From Eledone cirrhosa (Eukaryota), in assembly GCA_964016885.1 (NCBI GenBank), contig OZ024741.1:347758001-347822000 (forward strand): a stretch of DNA of 64,000 bases, given 5' to 3'. The notes under the pieces are model-generated. The model did no database searches. It saw only the letters and a list, made by a program, of their open reading frames with translations, and was not told where the DNA came from. A program made the position numbers and the translations under genes. How positions within the stretch are numbered: position 1 is the first letter of the stretch; the number at the start of each line of letters is the position of its first letter. Of this stretch, positions 4,973-32,300 are shown piece by piece.

Positions 4973-7435
4973 TTAACTGTATACTTTGTGAAAAGTCCTA
5001 TGGAATTTATGCAGGCAGATAGAAAACAAATCGGAGCGTCTATTTATTATAGATTCTAGGTTAGAGATAATGGTAAATTTTTCATTTAGGCAGAGATTAC
5101 AGATTTTAGATAGAGAGCTGTTCAAGTATGAGGATGCAGAAGAAATCTTTTTCCAAAAGATGTTATATTTAATGTTTTTGTCTTTTAAGGACCATATGAG
5201 TTCTGAGAGAGCAGTGTTAGTTCTTTTAAGTTTGTATTTGAAAGATGAATGATGATTATAGAGACGAGCTTTAAAAGAGGTGGAAGTGGAGCCAAAATAG
5301 GTGAAGGAATTGGTGCTAGTTATAATTTTACATTCATAAATTAAGTTTTTATCGAGGCAATGGTTGTTGAGAGGACATTTATTTTTAATGCGGCAGTTGC
5401 AATTAGAGAGATTATTAATGAGTGATCTAGTGTTATCTATAGAAGGAATTGGATTGGAGAAGTTGTTTGCGATAGGAATAATAGGAATAATAGTTTCTGG
5501 ATTTAGAGTTGGATTATGAACATTTAGCGAAGTTGTGTTTGACGTTGTATTTGGGTTTACAGAAGTTAGCCTAGGGTTTACAATGACGTCGGGAGTACTA
5601 TTACTGTTATTATGAAATTCAATATTGGAAGGAAGAGATTTAGTATTTAATATTTTGTTGTTGTGTTTAGAGATGATGTTGGAAATATTGGAGGATGTAG
5701 AATACGAAAATTTGATGGTGTGTTTGTTAAATATTTTACTATAGATATGTGAGGGAGGGAAGCATTTATTTAAGGCACTAAAAAATAATTTAGGAATATT
5801 GTTATTAATAGAGATGGAGAAAGGAGCATTATACCAGATTATGTTTTTGTATCTAGGTCTTTTATTAAAATTATTGGAATGGTCAAGATTAATTATCCTA
5901 CTGTAAGTTTTCCTAGAATTTGTTTCTTTATTATATTTGATTTTATCTGGATAGCCGGCTTTAGAAAGTGCGTTATTATAGTAATTGGCGTTAGCATCAA
6001 AGATGTTTTTATTAGAAGATATGTTAGATATTCTATTTCCAATATTATTAACTATAGCATTCTTGATATTGGTAGGATGGTTAGATTTAAAGTTAACATA
6101 ATTAAGATTCTCATTGTTTTTATGGTAAGGGTTTTTATGGCCAGTGTCAAGATTAAGAGATACATCCAAGAAATTAGCTAGTTTGATACTATTATCAAAT
6201 TCCATTTTTAGGTTATGTTGGTTAAAGAGATTACGTATATTGTTCTTAATAATATTAAGTTTAACTATATTGCAATTTAGGATAGTAAAGAGTCCATCGT
6301 CACGATAAATTCCACCGCGAAGTTGAGGAATTTTCCGACTCAAAGAGTTCAAAATGAAGATACCAATTAAATCAGTCAATTGGGATGAATCGGATGCTCC
6401 CATTGTGATGTCGAAGTTGTTAGAGGTATCGGCTCTGGTCCAATATTCGTTGTTGAACTCTAGGATGGTTTTACGTGCGGTGAGGATGATGTGAAGTTCA
6501 TCTGTGGTGATGTCAGAATATTTAAGTGCGAAAGATAGAGCATTATTGAGAAGTGAAGGCGAAATGGGGGAATAGTAGCTGGCAATATCGAATTGAATAA
6601 ATTTTAGTTTGTTTTTATTATCCAATTTGTTGAACCAGCCAATCACTTCAGAAGTACCAAACCATAAATTTAGGTTTATAGAAGAGCAATTAGAACTAAC
6701 CTGTGGGATAATCCTATCCAAGGTGGCTTTACTAACAACCCCCAGATCAGATTTAGAGGGGGCGATTAATCTAACAGGTATTTCAGTGCGAAAATTGTTT
6801 TTGTGATCCTTGAGATTTATCCTCGGAGTTCTTGGGAGGAATGGTTCGGTCTTTTTTTCAATGCCAAGTTTTGACATAATCTCATAGGCTTCAAGGTTTA
6901 TGCATTCTAAATTTTCATGGTTGGTTTTACGATACTTTTTCCTAAGTTCCTTTAGGATAAGGTTGTTATAATTATCCTTGGAAATACCATATAGGTTATT
7001 GGTTTTGTCAGAGTGGACTAAAACATTTTTTGAGGAATTTAGGTTAGAGATTGTGTTCTTGAGATTTACAAGGTGCTCTTGTCCTTTGTAAGGGTATCTC
7101 TTGAATTTAAGATTTTTTATTATTTTAGTTAATTCTTCCTCGAATTGTGCTAGATTTTTGTTGGAAGGAGGATTTCGTCTAGAATTAAAAAGATGATCGA
7201 GGAAGTTGTGTTCTTTGGTATGAAAGTTCCCTTTTAGGCGCTGGTCATAGAAATAGGCTGTCCATCTAAGTCTTCTTACGAAGGAGTCAGTTTTTTCAAT
7301 AAGAAGTTTGGTGAATTCGGATTTACCAGGTATAGAAATGTCTTTAGTTGAATTTGTTATGTTGTAATAATCCATGTTGTAGAAGAAGAGGTGAAGGACC
7401 ATCAAAAGGTATCCAATATGAGAGTAAGCGCTCAA
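4973..7435 (-). CDS. PLE reverse transcriptase + C-terminal GIY-YIG endonuclease (likely ATG at 7401 or 7375)
   Basis: RT motifs QFDIASYY, ITMGASDS, GIYRDDGL, NFLDVSLNL, YVNFKSNHP; linker CNCx5C; EN LIYEC..YFGST..FKARLYNH, CNLCLNEK, CLH. Confidence 0.95.
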   Translation of the reverse strand: MSAYSHIGYLLMVLHLFFYNMDYYNITNSTKDISIPGKSEFTKLLIEKTDSFVRRLRWTAYFYDQRLKGNFHTKEHNFLDHLFNSRRNPPSNKNLAQFEEELTKIIKNLKFKRYPYKGQEHLVNLKNTISNLNSSKNVLVHSDKTNNLYGISKDNYNNLILKELRKKYRKTNHENLECINLEAYEIMSKLGIEKKTEPFLPRTPRINLKDHKNNFRTEIPVRLIAPSKSDLGVVSKATLDRIIPQVSSNCSSINLNLWFGTSEVIGWFNKLDNKNKLKFIQFDIASYYSPISPSLLNNALSFALKYSDITTDELHIILTARKTILEFNNEYWTRADTSNNFDITMGASDSSQLTDLIGIFILNSLSRKIPQLRGGIYRDDGLFTILNCNIVKLNIIKNNIRNLFNQHNLKMEFDNSIKLANFLDVSLNLDTGHKNPYHKNNENLNYVNFKSNHPTNIKNAIVNNIGNRISNISSNKNIFDANANYYNNALSKAGYPDKIKYNKETNSRKTYSRIINLDHSNNFNKRPRYKNIIWYNAPFSISINNNIPKLFFSALNKCFPPSHIYSKIFNKHTIKFSYSTSSNISNIISKHNNKILNTKSLPSNIEFHNNSNSTPDVIVNPRLTSVNPNTTSNTTSLNVHNPTLNPETIIPIIPIANNFSNPIPSIDNTRSLINNLSNCNCRIKNKCPLNNHCLDKNLIYECKIITSTNSFTYFGSTSTSFKARLYNHHSSFKYKLKRTNTALSELIWSLKDKNIKYNIFWKKISSASSYLNSSLSKICNLCLNEKFTIISNLESIINRRSDLFSICLHKFHRTFHKVYS

Positions 7436-7534
7436 CCGTTAAGGAGCAAGTTAATGTAGGAGGTGAATTTTATTGTAGTACAATAAAGCAATGCAGATAT
7501 CGGATAAGAAGCACTCTACAGTTTATATATATAT

Positions 7535-8560
7535 ATATAAACAAGGTTTAGCAAATAATGAAAAAGTTTCAAAATAAATTTTAAAAAATTGACTTTACCT
7601 ACTATAGTTACCTTTACCGATCGGTTTCGAATCCCAAAAATAAACGGAGACCATACGGCCTTCGTTGCAAAGAAAGATTCTCGTCAGAAGGTTCTTTTCA
7701 TTCGAAGAATATAAAATTCCTGAATTTAAATTACGAACTAGCGCTATCAAAACTGTTCCTGGGATGAGAGTAATTTAAATTCAGGAATGTTATATTCTTC
7801 GTATGAAAAGAACCTTCTGACGAGAATCTTTCTTTGCAACGAAGGCCGTATGGTCTCCGTTTATTTTGGGGATTCGAAACCGATCGGTAAAGGTAACTAT
7901 AGTAGGTAAAGTCAATTTTTTAAAATTTATTTTGAAACTTTTTCATTGTTTGCTAAACCTTGTTTATATTTGTTCTGGCTCGTTAATTTATTAACCTGCC
8001 ATTGAACCACACTGGCATTTGGTTGGACAATACATGCGTACCTTAGCGCCTTGTGCGTGAAGGAACACATATCCTATTATTACACACTCCTCTAAGTTGA
8101 GAACAAATTTGGTCGTTCCGACTGCTGCTAGTGATAGCTGCGGCTGGTTTGACCTACCTCCTTCTGCCTCTATCTTTACTTCGGCCCTTGATAAACCTGT
8201 TTCTACATCATCCACTCTCATCCCAGGAACAGTTTTGATAGCGCTAGTTCGTAATTTAAATTCAGGAATTTTATATTCTTCGAATGAAAAGAACCTTCTG
8301 ACGAGATTCTTTCTTTGCAACGAAGGCCGTATAGTCTCCGTTTATTTTTGGGATTCGAAACCGATCGGTAAAGGTAACTATAGCAGGTAAAGTCAATTTT
8401 TTAAAATTTATTTTGAAACTTTTTCATTATTTGCTAAACCTTGTTTATATTTGTTCTGGCTCGTTAATTTATTAACCTGCCATTGAACCACACTGGCATT
8501 TGGTTGGACAATACATGCGTACCTTAGCGCCTTGTGCGTGAAGGAACACATATCCTATTA
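7535..8560. mobile_element. 481-bp HHR unit (family A): inverted partial copy plus ~1.6 tandem copies, non-coding
   Basis: 7535-7770 is the reverse complement of the unit; 7771-8080 recurs at 8252-8560; HHRs at 7610-7692(-), 7812-7894(+), 8293-8375(+). Confidence 0.92.
7812..7894 (+). ncRNA. Type I hammerhead ribozyme
   Basis: acctt CTGACGA gaatc...gattc GAAA ccgatcgg TA aaggt. Confidence 0.9.
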
Positions 8561-9139: not shown

Positions 9140-9902
9140 CCCTCTGACCACTTCCGCACTACCACACCAGGATTTGACACCACCGATCATCGTTCCAGCT
9201 ATCCATTCTACGACAAGTGAAATCTCTAATCCTGTCTTACACTCCATTGAATTATCTTAGGAACATACACACGAACAAACACTTACATTGTTTTCGAACC
9301 ACGCCCCCTACATCCACACCACATATAAACACAAACACACACGTGCGTATCCCCATATACACACACTCAGGCCCCGGACTCCACACGCCACCTCCCCCAC
9401 CCTTCTCCATCCACACACACGCACACACCAGTTTCCCTATTACCTGAACATAGAACCTCGTTCTTCCCCCAACTCTCACATTCACACACAACACACCACA
9501 CACAACACACACACACACGTACACATACACCTATACACAAACACCACCTTCAGCCCCATCCACATCCCCCCATCCCTCTCCCCTCTCCAGCACCCATCCA
9601 CCCACCAACACCTCTACACGCCTCACACCCTTTCACCCCTTGTTTATTTTTGTTTTTATTTTTATTTATATTTGTATTTTTAAAACATTTCCTTTACTCT
9701 CTAAAAATATTGTCCCACCCCCCTTTTTAAATGTCTTTCCACCTCTGTCCCACACACCTTCGGAACTCGCTTCCTACCTACTGTTCTCCTGATGAAGGGC
9801 TTATGCGCGAAACGCCGTCCCCCACCCTCACTCTCAAGCGTGAAGCTAAAAACCATACAATTTGTACTGCCTCTCTGTTTTTTGTTCTCTGTACATTTAT
9901 TC

Positions 9903-23600: not shown

Positions 23601-24600
23601 TGTTGAATGAAATTTATGCTTTCTATTCTCAAAAGGCTAACGTGCAAACAGACGTGTTAAAAACAAAATTATTACAAATAATTATTAGCGATAATTTAAT
23701 CTGTAATATAAAAGTTAAAGAGAATTGGTAAACTGAAAGAGAGCAACTGTGAATAAGATTATGTAGGAATTAAAATACAAGTGTTAATTTGTCAACAGGC
23801 ACAAGACTTAATGAGGCAATATGGAAAATACTCGGGGTAATTCACGTTATATGCAGACTAGAGAGATTCCTGGAAAGTGCAAGAACAGCTCTGGATATGT
23901 TCGGGTCTTATTTAATCGTCTTAGTGAAGTATATTATTCAACGTAATTGCAACACTTGATAATTGATATATATATATATATATACTATACTGAACTTACA
24001 AATTTATACTAACTAAATTTGTGTATAGTCTTTTATGACTTTACTAATAATTGATACTCATACTCACACCTTACACTGCCTCATTAAATTGAGTTGACAA
24101 ACCCTAATTAAGTTAACTCCTTGTAACAATAAACAAACATTTTTTTTTTACTAGCGTTCATTAGTTTGACAGATAACTCTACTTTGCACCGGTAATTACG
24201 TGCCTCAGAGCACAAAGACTTTTCCTCCATTTTTCTAAATGGAGTAATGCATTCTGATGTTAAAATACGTCTCTACCCATACAGGGTACTTTATTAAATA
24301 CTTTGCTTTTAATATTGCCTCAGAAGAGCCCCATTGAGCGACATATAGCTAAGAGCTTTTTTATAAATGTAATTTAACGGCTTGCCTCTCTTGCATTAAT
24401 ATTGTCACTTATAACCGCTCTGCTTATCTTCCTACACTAAATATTAACTCCACTAATATGTAACCCTGAGTACACAAGTATTGAGCACCTATATCATCCT
24501 CTTTTGGAAAATAACACTCTGTATCGCATCTCTTTATACCTCCTCTTTCTATCCTCATTTACGATACTGTAACTTTTTATTATATATATATATATATATA

Positions 24601-27600
24601 TTGGAATAAATGCTCTGAAATAGCGATATATATGTGAATATAGACATAGAATATTCGAAAATATTCTGTATGTTTATAATAAACATTTTGAAGACCTAAT
24701 CGCTATAGAATAGAATACGTCACGTATTACAATTAGATTCTCGATAAAAGCAAGGGAAGTAATCTACGCGTTTCATTCTTGTTAGAAATCATCAGGACTA
24801 CATATCCAGTGCTTTTATCGAGAATGACACAGCTAGAGACTTATAGAATACTTAGCTGTGTACAGGATCTGGTTTGAAAGAGCGGTTGCCGGTCCGGCAG
24901 AAATTAGAAATTGGAATAAATGCTCTGAAATAGCGATATATATGTGAATATAGACATAGAATATTCGAAAATATTCTGTATGTTTATAATAAACATTTTG
25001 AAGACCTAATCGCTATAGAATAGAATACGTCACGTATTACAATTAGATTCTCGATAAAAGCAAGGGAAGTAATCTACGCGTTTCATTATTGTTAGAAATC
25101 ATCAGGACTACATATCCAGTGCTTTTATCGAGAATGACACAGCTAGAGACTTATAGAATACTTAGCTGTGTACAGGAACTGGTTTGAAAGAGCGGTTGCC
25201 GGTCCGGCAGAAATTAGAAATTGGAATAAATGCTCTGAAATAGCGATATATATGTGAATATAGACATAGAATATTCGAAAATATTCTGTATGTTTATAAT
25301 AAACATTTTGAAGACCTAATCGCTATAGAATAGAATACGTCACGTATTACAATTTGATTCTCGATAAAAGCAAGGGAAGTAATCTACGCGTTTCATTCTT
25401 GTTAGAAATCATCAGGACTACATATCCAGTGCTTTTATCGAGAATGACACAGCTAGAGACTTATAGAATACTTAGCTGTGTACAGGAACTGGTTTGAAAG
25501 AGCGGTTGCCGGTCCGGCAGAAATTAGAAATTGGAATAAATGCTCTGAAATAGCGATATATATGTGAATATAGACATAGAATATTCGAAAATATTCTGTA
25601 TGTTTATAATAAACATTTTGAAGACCTAATCGCTATAGAATAGAATACGTCACGTATTACAATTAGATTCTCGATAAAAGCAAGGGAAGTAATCTACGCG
25701 TTTCATTCTTGTTAGAAATCATCAGGACTACATATCCAGTGCTTTTATCGAGAATGACACAGCTAGAGACTTATAGAATACTTAGCTGTGTACAGGAACT
25801 GGTTTGAAAGAGCGGTTGCCGGTCCGGCAGAAATTAGAAATTGGAATAAATGCTCTGAAATAGCGATATATATGTGAATATAGACATAGAATATTCGAAA
25901 ATATTCTGTATGTTTATAATAAACATTTTGAAGACCTAATCGCTATAGAATAGAATACGTCACGTATTACAATGATTTCTAACAAGAATGAAACGCGTAG
26001 ATTACTTCCCTTGCTTTTATCGAGAATCTAATTGTAATACGTGACGTATTCTATTCTATAGCGATTAGGTCTTCAAAATGTTTATTATAAACATACAGAA
26101 TATTTTCGAATATTCTATGTCTATATTCACATATATATCGCTATTTCAGAGCATTTATTCCAATTTCTAATTTCTGCCGGACCGGCAACCGCTCTTTCAA
26201 ACCAGTTCCTGTACACAGCTAAGTATTCTATAAGTCTCTAGCTGTGTCATTCTCGATAAAAGCACTGGATATGTAGTCCTGATGATTTCTAACAAGAATG
26301 AAACGCGTAGATTACTTCCCTTGCTTTTATCGAGAATCTAATTGTAATACGTGACGTATTCTATTCTATAGCGATTAGGTCTTCAAAATGTTTATTATAA
26401 ACATACAGAATATTTTCGAATATTCTATGTCTATATTCACATATATATCGCTATTTCAGAGCATTTATTCCAATTTCTAATTTCTGCCGGACCGGCAACC
26501 GCTCTTTCAAACCAGTTCCTGTACACAGCTAAGTATTCTATAAGTCTCTAGCTGTGTCATTCTCGATAAAAGCACTGGATATGTAGTCCTGATGATTTCT
26601 AACAAGAATGAAACGCGTAGATTACTTCCCTTGCTTTTATCGAGAATCTAATTGTAATACGTGACGTATTCTATTCTATAGCGATTAGGTCTTCAAAATG
26701 TTTATTATAAACATACAGAATATTTTCGAATATTCTATGTCTATATTCACATATATATCGCTATTTCAGAGCATTTATTCCAATTTCTAATTTCTGCCGG
26801 ACCGGCAACCGCTCTTTCAAACCAGTTCCTGTACACAGCTAAGTATTCTATAAGTCTCTAGCTGTGTCATTCTCGATAAAAGCACTGGATATGTAGTCCT
26901 GATGATTTCTAACAAGAATAAAACGCGTAGATTACTTCCCTTGCTTTTATCGAGAATCTAATTGTAATACGTGACGTATTCTATTCTATAGCGATTAGGT
27001 CTTCAAAATGTTTATTATAAACATACAGAATATTTTCGAATATTCTATGTCTATATTCACATATATATCGCTATTTCAGAGCATTTATTCCAATTTCTAA
27101 TTTCTGCCGGACCGGCAACCGCTCTTTCAAACCAGTTCCTGTACACAGCTAAGTATTCTATAAGTCTCTAGCTGTGTCATTCTCGATAAAAGCACTGGAT
27201 ATGTAGTCCTGATGATTTCTAACAAGAATGAAACGCGTAGATTACTTCCCTTGCTTTTATCGAGAATCTAATTGTAATACGTGACGTATTCTATTCTATA
27301 GCGATTAGGTCTTCAAAATGTTTATTATAAACATACAGAATATTTTCGAATATTCTATGTCTATATTCACATATATATCGCTATTTCAGAGCATTTATTC
27401 CAATTTCTAATTTCTGCCGGACCGGCAACCGCTCTTTCAAACCAGTTCCTGTACACAGCTAAGTATTCTATAAGTCTCTAGCTGTGTCATTCTCGATAAA
27501 AGCACTGGATATGTAGTCCTGATGATTTCTAACAAGAATGAAACGCGTAGATTACTTCCCTTGCTTTTATCGAGAATCTAATTGTAATACGTGACGTATT

Positions 27601-27680
27601 CTATTCTATAGCGATTAGGTCTTCAAAATGTTTATTATAAACATACAGAATATTTTCGAATATTCTATGTCTATATTCAT
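24601..27680. mobile_element. Head-to-head tandem array of a 310-bp hammerhead-containing unit (non-LTR retrozyme-like)
   Basis: Units start at 24601, 24911, 25221, 25531, 25841; orientation flips at 25972-25973; ~5.5 inverted units to 27680; (TA)n on both flanks; no ORF. Confidence 0.95.
26273..26315 (+). ncRNA. Minimal type I hammerhead ribozyme (one of 9 full-length copies in the array)
   Basis: gtagtc CTGATGA tttct-aaca-agaat GAAA cgcg TA gattac; + copies start at 26273, 26583, 26893 (GAAA>AAAA), 27203, 27513; - copies at 24759, 25069, 25379, 25689. Confidence 0.92.
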
Positions 27681-29998
27681 ATATATATATATATATATAT
27701 GTTTTAACTTGGTAACCATTTTTCATATGAGTACAACCAGTATGTTAGCCTTCACTAATATATTTTATGCTTATACAGAAGACGTTCTTGTGTAATAATC
27801 CTCCGCTCATTCTTTAATTTCGTCACATTGTTCAGGTTTCCTCCACTCAAAATCTATGTCACGTACTTTCCTCGGATGTGACTAGCTCGGGTAAGAATCG
27901 GTTTTGCTGAGGAAATATATTAATACTAAAATGGTGTTGGATTCATTAACGTGTTTGATAAAGGTGAGCATAGCTCAACATTCCCTGACGCTACCCATCT
28001 TTCAAATTTCGAAAAAGGCTTTGTTTGTGAACTATGACCGAACGTTAATGCCAATAAGATGGAGGCGACATTATTCAGTTAAACAATTTGTATTGACCCA
28101 CTTCATTAAACATACTTAATATACATTTCTTTTTAACATTTATTTAAGTATATATATTTATATACGTATTGGACATCAAAAATTGCTGATAGAAAACATT
28201 AGCAGCTAAAATGGTTAATGACAATGTTAGCTGCTTAATCTAAGATATATATTCTACTCTCGGATAAACCCGTTCTGTAACTGATTATAAAATGTAAAAT
28301 GCCAACGAAGAGAGATAACTACTGACGTCTGTTGTATACTCTAACGCACAAATATTGAAATTACTAGACAATGCGTTCGGTCAAATTGCTAGAGATAGGA
28401 TAGCTGCAACATTATTCTAAGTCTAACTACTCAATAAAAAAGGATGAACATATTGCTTAATATAATATATCATTTAAAGGAAAGTGAGGCTGTTTAGGCA
28501 CAGGCACTTTTTGTTGTAAGATATTTGACTAACAATAATGGTTAAATTCATCGCGTGTACATTTAGTTCATTACAAAGACATTATTGAAGGTCGAGGAGT
28601 GATACACACATGAAGCAAAATGTTTTCTTTTGTGGACAGAACATTTTTGTTTCCCTATACATTCCATCCACGTGATGTCAACAAATAATAAGTGCTGTGT
28701 ATGAACTACAATATATCAGTCTGTGTGTAATTATTTATGTAATTCATAATGTGTCAGAACATTTCGTTATAATATAAAAATCTCCTTCTTTTTTGCAGAA
28801 GACGCGTTGTTTTAACTTTTGATACTCTAAGTATAAATATGAATTTTAATTATACATCAGAACAATTTAAAATGTGTGAGTCATTTGCCTTAATAATATA
28901 GATATTAATCTAATGTAAATTAAATTCATAATACGTCCTGAAAACAGAAAATATTTTCCACCATCTAGATAGATAACAGACGTGATGTTTAAGCAAATCT
29001 GTATATCATCGAAACAATTTTTTTTGCGTCCTGCCTCATTCATTAATATTAATATAATGAGATCGTTTTCTTGACACTATCCGTGATATAGAAATCAGTA
29101 ATATTTGTTGAAACGTAAGATATTAATATTTATTGGTGATACGTAGATATTTGATAACATACTGTAAGAATTTGTTCATATAATCAGCAGGCTATTACGT
29201 TATCTATTCAATATTTTACAGTAAACTGATAAGTTTGCTTGTAGTTAAGCTTTCTTTTAGTGATGAATTATGTTAGTTATCTTGTCGGAGAATTCTAACC
29301 AAACTGCAGATTCCTCTGTTACTCAGAGTGTAGATGTATAAAAGGATTTTTTTCACACACGAAGTTTTAGGAATGTTATTATATTTACAAATGTATCGAC
29401 ATTTATTTACAAAAACATATTTAGAAAAAATATATAATTTTTTTTTTGCTTGGATTCAACAGACTTATACGCCAAACATTTATTAAAACCTGCTAAAAAT
29501 ATAATGCATTACTAATAATACTGAATATCGTATTTGTGCGTATGTGTGTATATGTGTTTCGTACTTGACGATGTTCTGTCCAAATGTAATGAGGAAACAC
29601 AGCAGTTAGAAACCTTCATCAACGAATGTTAAATTAATATCAAGTGTAATACTGAGATAACAATAAAAGGTGTTTTTCTCTCACGCGTACTTTCTATTTG
29701 TATATAGATCAAAATGTTCTTTAAGATACAATTGATTAATTACCTGATATTTAATCAATATTTTATGAACATGAACAGGAATTAATGAATGTATTCTAAT
29801 TAACTAATTTTCTAGACGAACGTTATCAGATTTCTTTGAATAGATGTATCATTAGCACATTGTAACATCATTGATATGCATAGATCGACGAAGACACAAG
29901 GCCAGGAGAGCAGATGCACGCACGCAAAACTACCATATAAATCTTTGTACATACATACACGCACACAGAATAATAAAAACACACACACATATATACAG

Positions 29999-30782: not shown

Positions 30783-31640
30783 TTAGAAAGTGTTTTTTTT
30801 TCAAAATGAAAAACAACGAGGTGTCCTACACGAGTGAAAATATAAAGAAAACAGATGAAATCGAAAATGAAACTGCAGTCTTTTTTTTTAAGTATATTTA
30901 TTTGGTTCCTTTACCGGTTTCGCAGTTCTTGTGCTTTTCAAAAGTAGAATTAAGATGGAGGGTTTGTGGTTTTTCTCGCATCTGGTTGGTGTTCAAATGT
31001 TACTTCTGTTTTATATGGAAAAAAGTGGCTCGAAATGCTAGGTTTTTGGAAAAGTAATTTGGTTTGTTGATGATTGTATATGATTTAATATTGGACGTAC
31101 CTTGAATTTGTTTCTGTTTTAGTAATTCATAAATGACTATTGCTTTAGCCCTTTCTATTCCATTATTTATTAGTAATGGTCGGTACTGTCTTTCAAGTAG
31201 AATTTTCTTTAATTCTTGAAGTCTTTTATTTCGCGTTTCATAATTGGAGGGAAGTGTGCAAATTCTTCTTGCTAGGTTAAAAGGGATGTTCGTCTTCGTG
31301 TGCTTTGGATGGTTGGAGATGAATAGCAGGAATTGTTTGGAATCTGTTGGTTTGTAGTGTATGTCAGTTTCAATATTTGTGTCTTTTTTTATGATTAAGA
31401 TGTCCAGAAATGGGAGTTGATCTTGGCTGTATTCCATAGTGAATTGGATGTGGTTATTGATGCCGTTAATTAAATTGTTGAAATAATTTAGTTGGTCGAG
31501 TGTGTGAGACCAAAGTATAAGAGAATCCTCCAAGTAGCGTTTCCAATTCTCTGATAAATATTTGTGGAAGTTCAATCCGTATTTTGATTTGGAATGTTCA
31601 TGTATTTGGACTTCCAAGTAAGTATGCCATGACTAAATTG
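30783..31640 (-). pseudogene. Truncated Neptune-like PLE RT thumb fragment joined directly to its pLTR (EN missing)
   Basis: KRYLED (decayed YLDD), IQFTME, LPFLDILI, YKPTDSKQ, SNHPKH, IPFNLARRICT; HHR variant at 30908-30945(-). Confidence 0.85.
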
Positions 31641-31944: not shown

Positions 31945-32300
31945 ATATTAGAAAGTGAGGTTTTTTTTACAAAATGAAAAATAACCGAGGTGTCCTACAC
32001 GAGTGGAAGTATAAAGAAAAAGGGATGAAATCGAAAATGCAACTGAAGTCTTATTTTTTTTTAAATATATATATTTATTTGGTTACTTTACCGGTTTCGC
32101 AGTTCTTCTGCTTTTCAAAAGGTGAGTTGAGATGGAGGGTCTGTGGTTTTTCTCACAGATGTGAGAAAAACCACAGACCCTCCATCTCAACTCACCTTTT
32201 GAAAAGCAGAAGAACTGCGAAACTGGTAAAGGAACCAAATAAATATATATATTTTAAAAAAAATAAGACTTCAGTTGCATTTTCGATTTCATCCCTTTTT

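Follow-up and report, generated by a model that had tools for sequence, protein, structure and literature searches.

How does a non-coding 310-bp repeat come to stand as two opposed blocks of near-identical copies inside a dinucleotide tract, and from what template were those copies made? The question is raised by an array in a 64,000-nucleotide stretch of the Eledone cirrhosa genome (contig OZ024741.1), which is called the window here. Units are numbered from the base that follows the predicted ribozyme cut, so that 26310 is unit position 1 and 26310-26619 is the reference unit. The array, at 24600..27688, has the following parts.

24581..24601, no strand: left (TA)n target tract, read from the sequence; it is the terminus of an older repeat.
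24600..25973, minus strand: left arm of 4.43 units (1,374 bp); its outer terminus, the long and tail-bearing one, falls at unit position 165 and its inner one at 32 (TRF and base comparison).
24600..24625, minus strand: Penelope-type tail, unit 140-165, at the left outer end only (base comparison, family ends and the accessible text of PMC11167929).
25972..25973, no strand: head-to-head junction with a 2-bp (AT) overlap or microhomology (base comparison).
25972..27688, plus strand: right arm of 5.54 units (1,717 bp), unambiguous up to base 27679; its inner terminus falls at unit position 283 and its outer one at 130-139 (the short, AU-rich end, merging into the TA tract) (TRF and base comparison).
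26310..26619, plus strand: predicted monomer of 310 nt (34% GC), bounded by two cut sites.
27680..27700, no strand: right (TA)n target tract, read from the sequence.

The two arms lie head-to-head, and their 4.43 and 5.54 units, obtained by TRF and base-level comparison, agree with the original prediction of about 10 near-identical 310-bp units, about 4.4 on the minus and 5.5 on the plus strand, with (TA)n at both array ends. Exactly four substitutions separate the array from the reference unit, at 24868, 25088, 25355 and 26920; their number and three of the positions had been given correctly, and the fourth had been placed one base away, at 25087. One haplotype runs through all units, and this together with the few substitutions supports the single recent insertion that had been proposed. 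The earlier statement that the unit has no open reading frame also holds, the longest stop-free frame in a unit trimer being 59 codons; in the trimer frames checked, the reverse transcriptase (RT) and GIY-YIG reading frame of an autonomous Penelope-like element (PLE) is absent from the unit. A simple consensus scan of the unit found no Pol III A or B box. A target-site duplication would be concealed in the (TA)n, and no empty allele of the window insertion was found in its own genome, the left flank itself being a repeat end whose other copies likewise run into TA-rich sequence.

Each complete unit carries a candidate hammerhead ribozyme, for which the relevant positions are listed below.

26273..26315, plus strand: type I hammerhead motif, taken as the example, with a predicted cut after GUA at 26309 (sequence, Rfam below threshold, folding).
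A17 at 26619, 26929, 27239 and 27549, plus strand: further motifs.
A17 at 25695, 25385, 25075 and 24765, minus strand: further motifs.
26249..26337, plus strand: perfect 16-bp extension of helix I (26249-26264 with 26322-26337), which closes the monomer (base comparison).
26920..26920, plus strand: core G12 to A in one motif, predicted inactive (base comparison).
25088..25088, minus strand: substitution breaking a helix II pair of one motif (base comparison).

Read by eye, the strands are GUAGUC/GAUUAC (helix I, 6 bp), CUGAUGA, UUUC/GAAU (helix II, 4 bp with a U.U pair at its base), GAAA and GUA, and helix III has 2 bp and a GC loop within the palindrome ACGCGU. The Infernal search that had been put forward as a check gave nothing above threshold: the sole match was Hammerhead_HH9 at 19.2 bits (E 0.49), against a gathering score of 52. 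Of the claim that every unit holds one minimal type I hammerhead, the type I assignment stands, given a full core and three helices found by eye and by folding. "Minimal" does not, because the minimal hammerhead of PLEs as described in part of PMC4209133 is one from which helix III and loop 3 are absent, and the unit here has a 2-bp helix III, "canonical" in that usage, with a palindromic loop; and complete motifs number 9 rather than 10, the plus arm beginning inside the core. The circular monomer is predicted to fold with z = -4.8 (100 shuffles) and 60% of its bases paired, a score that cannot by itself assign the strand because the opposite strand gives -4.9. A lone motif is not predicted to reach the active form, helices II and III being weak. 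For two motifs, the predicted minimum-energy fold is a double hammerhead joined through ACGCGU, and for 26200-26620 the minimum-energy and centroid folds both hold the inter-motif helix with A17 unpaired. By these predictions the motif is of the weak-helix-III, dimer-dependent type known from animal repeats, as the available sections of PMC4209133 and PMC7229834 describe it.

The genome has haemocyanin genes of the mollusc type, each with seven domain matches. One haemocyanin unit scores 650-659 bits with 1js8, 4yd9 and 6r83, which are octopus and squid proteins, and no higher than 507 with the remaining chains; seven units per gene are a mark of octopods. The cephalopod host that had been proposed is thereby supported, and it is likely an octopod. 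The exact 43-nt motif of the window haplotype has 4,177 matches in the 3.0 Gb searched (C1-C4, the largest contigs, are approximately 380-440 Mb each and the others much smaller), compared with 0 for a control. Junctions between the unit and (TA)n number at least 1,228 for the long end (unit 165-170 followed by TA) and at least 1,245 for the short end (unit 130-139 followed by TA), both lower bounds because the patterns were matched exactly. This genome-wide copy search, which had been suggested from the window alone, makes the window array one among roughly 1,200 recent dispersed copies of a non-coding 310-bp repeat. We drew two samples. The first comprised 12 insertions taken from the first 100 motif matches with their ends ignored; 10 are head-to-head with one long and one short end, 1 is cut by an assembly gap and 1 is single-armed. 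The second comprised 60 further stretches of contig 1 from the end lists, mostly paired matches; 5 of its 7 unpaired picks turned out to be two-armed as well. All comparison loci lie within the first 202 Mb of one contig. Together they gave 66 complete two-armed insertions, from which a complex junction (L043), a duplicate in L064 and two insertions truncated by the stretch end were excluded. Their arms have medians of 982 and 1,245 bp with lengths that are only roughly exponential (KS p 0.03), and the mean total is 10 units, which extrapolates to approximately 12,000 units in all. The insertions are dispersed, with a median size of 2.6 kb and a maximum of 15 kb, and the view that this is not a classical satellite is upheld by the presence of about 1,200 short dispersed arrays, the lack of large blocks and local growth in a few arrays only. 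The earlier suggestion of a retrozyme is likewise supported by the 310-bp length, 34% GC, a hammerhead per unit, no reading frame, dispersal and a self-paired monomer. On its sequence characters, the family is a young, abundant, dispersed non-coding hammerhead repeat that we class as a non-LTR retrozyme.

The ends of these insertions bear on the machinery. All 66 have one short and one long end, 36 with the long end on the left and 30 with the short end on the left, although for the 56 that were selected by their ends the pairing alone is informative. The accessible portions of PMC8557442 and PMC3846280 describe insertions of endonuclease-bearing PLEs in which copies lie head-to-head, one end bears a tail of 30-40 nt and the target is (TA)n; the 310-bp family has head-to-head copies (10/12), a tail of 26-35 nt at one end, this being the offset between long and short ends (66/66), and (TA)n targets. 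According to part of PMC11167929, purified Anolis PLE protein cuts and extends both strands, and two internal RNA start sites define the tail. Thus the two systems share inverted head-to-head copies, a one-end tail, AT-rich or (TA)n targets, a hammerhead upstream of the start sites and extension of both strands, whereas the 310-bp family has no reading frame and its entire element is the 310-nt unit, repeated about 10 times per insertion. The short start site of the unit is also AU-rich and able to pair with the target, in contrast to the Anolis start site, which that source describes as not target-homologous. With two fixed ends, a head-to-head layout, (TA)n targets and the same layout in the autonomous PLEs of this genome, the Penelope-type machinery that had been proposed gains support, and a Penelope-type two-ended insertion is very likely for the family. 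That both arms end at two fixed sites points to two separately primed cDNAs, a point that the original prediction had missed.

Palindromes are hard for assemblers, and the inversion itself might therefore be an assembly or fold-back artefact, as had been allowed for at the outset. We give this practically no credence: the two flanks are not mirror images of each other, the arms terminate at different sites, every locus has its own junction, and the layout is common to about 1,200 loci and to the autonomous PLEs of the same genome. The inversion is thus a family-wide architecture and not an error at one locus. A further explanation is that a monomer or dimer was inserted and then amplified locally as a minisatellite, the inversion being a later rearrangement. 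This model is stated in 10.64898/2026.07.22.740005, a preprint that, in its available part, leans on local amplification for tandem retrozyme arrays, and duplication is visible in the longest arrays here. As an account of the family it is very improbable, given that the inverted arms share a haplotype, that each terminates in (TA)n at a fixed tail site, and that the arrays are nearly mutation-free, with approximately 4 singletons per 10,000 bases. The arrays with repeated internal variants (L070/71, with its 46-unit arm, L034, L036 and L054) are cases of local duplication or multimer copying. The L070-L071 arm, of 14 kb and about 46 units with repeated internal variants, has the appearance of a retrozyme array becoming a minisatellite, and at L036:2099-2370 a stretch of 272 bases of unrelated sequence has been captured at the head-to-head junction.

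We examined 67 inner junctions, of which 39 are direct joins and 28 have filler or unresolved bases. Microhomology of at least 2 bases occurs in 25 of the 39 direct joins, compared with 18.5% by chance, and the inner ends are scattered along the unit and do not accumulate at the cut site. We infer from these features that the two ends of a cleaved TA tract each primed a cDNA, that both cDNAs were copied off the ribozyme-sense strand and that they were joined in mid-array. In L1 twin priming, both target ends prime and give an inverted product with microhomology at the join. The 310-bp insertions have these same features, but their arms start at two fixed, close sites, and each arm runs repeatedly through one and the same sequence. 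We also considered blocked twin priming along a single linear RNA and rejected it, as the inner ends are not adjacent to the start of the other arm. For head-to-head PLE insertions, antisense self-priming is proposed in the accessible part of PMC3846280, and Craig et al. list the mechanism as unresolved.

If two cDNAs were made, the composition of their units should bear on the RNA from which they were copied. The haplotype test covered 56 loci with at least 2 full units (489 units), four double-insertion stretches being excluded. Each locus has one haplotype, with 24 haplotypes and 26 fixed alleles among the 56 loci, 15 of these alleles occurring in a single sampled locus, and the haplotype stays constant along up to 26 units. 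In the two-armed insertions, 66 in number, both arms carry 27 alleles in fixed form, whereas 63 entries that are not fixed, over an overlap of 58 kb, have no counterpart in the opposite arm. A new variant in every unit of both inverted arms implies a reiterated monomer. The same Penelope-type insertion from a template that was always an uncut linear multimer, with the ribozyme a passenger or rarely active, is in conflict with these data, since such a template cannot spread a new variant to all units and would have to account for 24 pure haplotypes in 56 loci with 15 private alleles, for 63 single-unit entries that the arms do not share and for fixed variants that spare the catalytic core. Three observations nevertheless speak for it: helices II and III are weak; the Anolis PLE used mainly unprocessed RNA in vitro, where ribozyme cleavage was dispensable for insertion (PMC11167929, accessible text); and at L080 and L067 the two arms have non-fixed variants in common, in register. 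At L080 the same haplotype switch occurs in both arms, two outer units being of one type and the remainder of another, and at L067 a variant is confined to the outer unit of both arms. These two loci do not fit a monomer circle; their variants suggest that at least 2 of the 66 insertions were copied from linear multimers, and their in-register switch is the best sign that the two cDNAs were begun within one unit of a single RNA. As the sole template, an uncut linear multimer appears unlikely.

A reiterated monomer could be read either around a circle or along a cleaved linear RNA, in which case the enzyme would jump from the 5' end to the 3' end in every round. The linear monomer explains pure haplotypes without ligation and allows an L080-like switch, and 6 loci have fixed one-base insertions (two alleles) at 2-4 nt from the cut site; these could be old jump scars. 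Yet the junction at the cut site is intact in 523 of 530 units, the other 7 having substitutions, and no indel was found in the 530 crossings. Inner ends do not gather at unit position 1, where there are none, and the three at position 3 are in loci bearing the insertion allele there. A haplotype that remains unchanged over up to 26 units also tells against repeated jumping. The intact junction and the absence of an inner-end pile-up favor a closed circle over end-to-end jumping, and we regard the linear monomer as quite improbable. A monomer circle is probably the main template, as far as the haplotypes can tell. The rolling reverse transcription of a 310-nt circle that had been proposed is accordingly favored by pure haplotypes and clean junctions for most of the sample, and falls short for the insertions that look copied from linear multimers.

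Variants that have propagated provide a separate view of the ribozyme. Fixed alleles are enriched in the 43-nt motif (11/26, p 0.0004) and absent from the 12 core positions (0/26, p 0.03), and those in the motif are at N7, in loop 2 or pair-preserving, one of them repairing the U.U pair. Singletons include three core substitutions. When variants that keep pairs were counted against those that break pairs or alter the core, the fixed alleles gave 10 versus 4 and the singletons 6 versus 25 (Fisher p 0.0017; transitions only, 0.0015), in a test that depends on the predicted fold and takes the window unit as its reference. With the core spared and the pairs kept, the propagated variants support selection on the ribozyme, within the terms of that predicted fold. 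A-to-G changes are enriched among the propagated variants (9/24 versus 5/51, p 0.009), and this excess fits either selection for G.U pairs or RNA editing.

We compared the unit with three PLE families that have open full-length frames: a 775-aa Neptune-type family, the 821-aa Hydra-type family of the window and the Hydra-type family of L161. Two of these are represented in the window.

4973-7438, minus strand: 821-codon open Penelope-type frame with the Hydra-clade motifs RW, DKT and CxCx5C; the genome has many near-identical full-length copies.
31000-31632, minus strand: Neptune-type fragment, with its head-to-head terminal repeat at 31980-32300; the family has many open 775-codon copies.

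Similarity of their tails to the unit was not significant (p 0.15 for the Neptune-type, 0.999 for the 821-aa Hydra-type and 0.5 for the L161 Hydra-type family), and no standard hammerhead pattern was found at the ends of the 775-codon Neptune-type family. Of the three, the L161 family alone has more than the core in common with the unit, namely most of helix II and its loop (p 0.001 versus shuffles, a value inflated by the conserved core). Like the 310-bp family, the Hydra-clade PLEs of this genome (L161-L173) have (TA)n targets, two fixed ends and a head-to-head layout; the L161 tail, however, is approximately 70 nt long as opposed to 26-35, and the tail regions are dissimilar. A Hydra-clade PLE of the L161 type is at present a weak lead as the possible partner. 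The autonomous L161-L173 family has 4,001 exact ribozyme matches, and some of its copies hold kilobases of flanking DNA between the repeats. Beside the 821-codon frame, a short head-to-head repeat element lies in (TA)n at window positions 7540-7960 and 8200-8400, and hammerhead-like cores of other repeat families occur in the window at 9789, 15235, 15989, 32469, 39742, 42983, 47912, 48020 and 48451.

The genome also contains relatives of the unit. Sibling family B (L123-L142 and L048:966-1273) is older, non-coding and 318-324 bp long, with 638 end matches; it is 75-78% identical over unit 59-235 and has the same two ends. Its hammerhead differs, with GUC and a longer palindromic helix III, the start-site region being kept while the ribozyme differs. 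A 351-bp non-coding relative was seen once. The relative at L057 resembles the L161 tail (p 0.009, in a post hoc comparison of a single copy).

Outside this genome, 19 public runs under 16 organism codes and from 16 studies hold 73-100% of the unit's words, a possible source run being excluded; no RNA run is among those listed, which has no bearing on expression. Four were assembled, and each gave one closed, unit-length contig of 340 bases at a depth of 10-34 and at least 99% identity; three match the window unit exactly, and the fourth has the variant already known at position 287. Such contigs are no proof of expression or transfer because a tandem array also closes a contig, and the run type is not on record. 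The runs are explained at least as well by trace cross-contamination or closely related octopods as by horizontal movement. No exact 27-nt match was found in metagenome or viral contigs. A bolder reading, in which the 310-nt RNA is a viroid-like circle that is selected as RNA, edited by ADAR, moves between animal species and becomes fixed in genomes when a dimeric Penelope enzyme rolls two cDNAs off one circle, strikes us as a long shot.

Much of this fits what has been published on metazoan non-LTR retrozymes from coral, mussel and axolotl (PMC7229834, PMC7761336 and Li et al., 10.64898/2026.07.22.740005, each in its accessible part). In common with them the family has a non-coding tandem unit within 150-450 bp, one type I hammerhead in each, low GC, a self-paired monomer and thousands of copies, and with axolotl HHR_Amex2 (PMC7229834, same part) it shares a 2-bp helix III, a U.U at the helix II base and better performance as a dimer, here by prediction. 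The difference is that cleavage and circles are demonstrated there, whereas the 310-bp family is known from sequence alone. The circle template and the Penelope partner of animal retrozymes are themselves proposals in the available text of PMC7229834 and PMC7761336. In the accessible portions of these two papers and of the preprint there are no head-to-head two-armed insertions with fixed Penelope tails and no cephalopod case, and a search of open-access main texts, to which supplements may add, found no report of a retrozyme inserted as two arms, of one from a cephalopod or of a template test by haplotype. Retrozymes, their circles and a proposed PLE partner are already published, also in PMC8490949; what is added here is the haplotype test of the template.

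Taken together, these data make it reasonably probable that the array is a recent retrozyme insertion, made by a likely borrowed Penelope-type RT/endonuclease from two fixed starts and likely from a single 310-nt RNA circle. An array would give a multimeric transcript, in which adjacent motifs would pair through ACGCGU to form a double hammerhead that cuts after GUA, as folding predicts and the variant pattern suggests. The monomer would then be ligated to a circle, as the precedent of other animals and the purity of the haplotypes suggest. The enzyme would cut (TA)n, and both DNA ends would prime at unit 130-139 and 165-170, the positions at which the insertions are seen to end. The cDNAs would run for a median of approximately 1 kb, stop at unfixed positions and be joined by microhomology or short fillers, as the observed arms and junctions indicate. 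A minority of insertions would likely come from uncut linear multimers, and a few arrays may later have expanded by local duplication. We count against this explanation that of nine Xenopus retrozyme dimers one was cut in vitro, as given in part of 10.64898/2026.07.22.740005.

The family thus offers approximately 1,200 natural products of insertion, and each array can be read as a record of one template. The sample supports arrays that are born multimeric, from two cDNAs primed at both target ends, copied off the ribozyme-sense strand and mostly off a reiterated monomer. Two putative start sites and a candidate 310-nt substrate are now specified for Penelope-type insertion.
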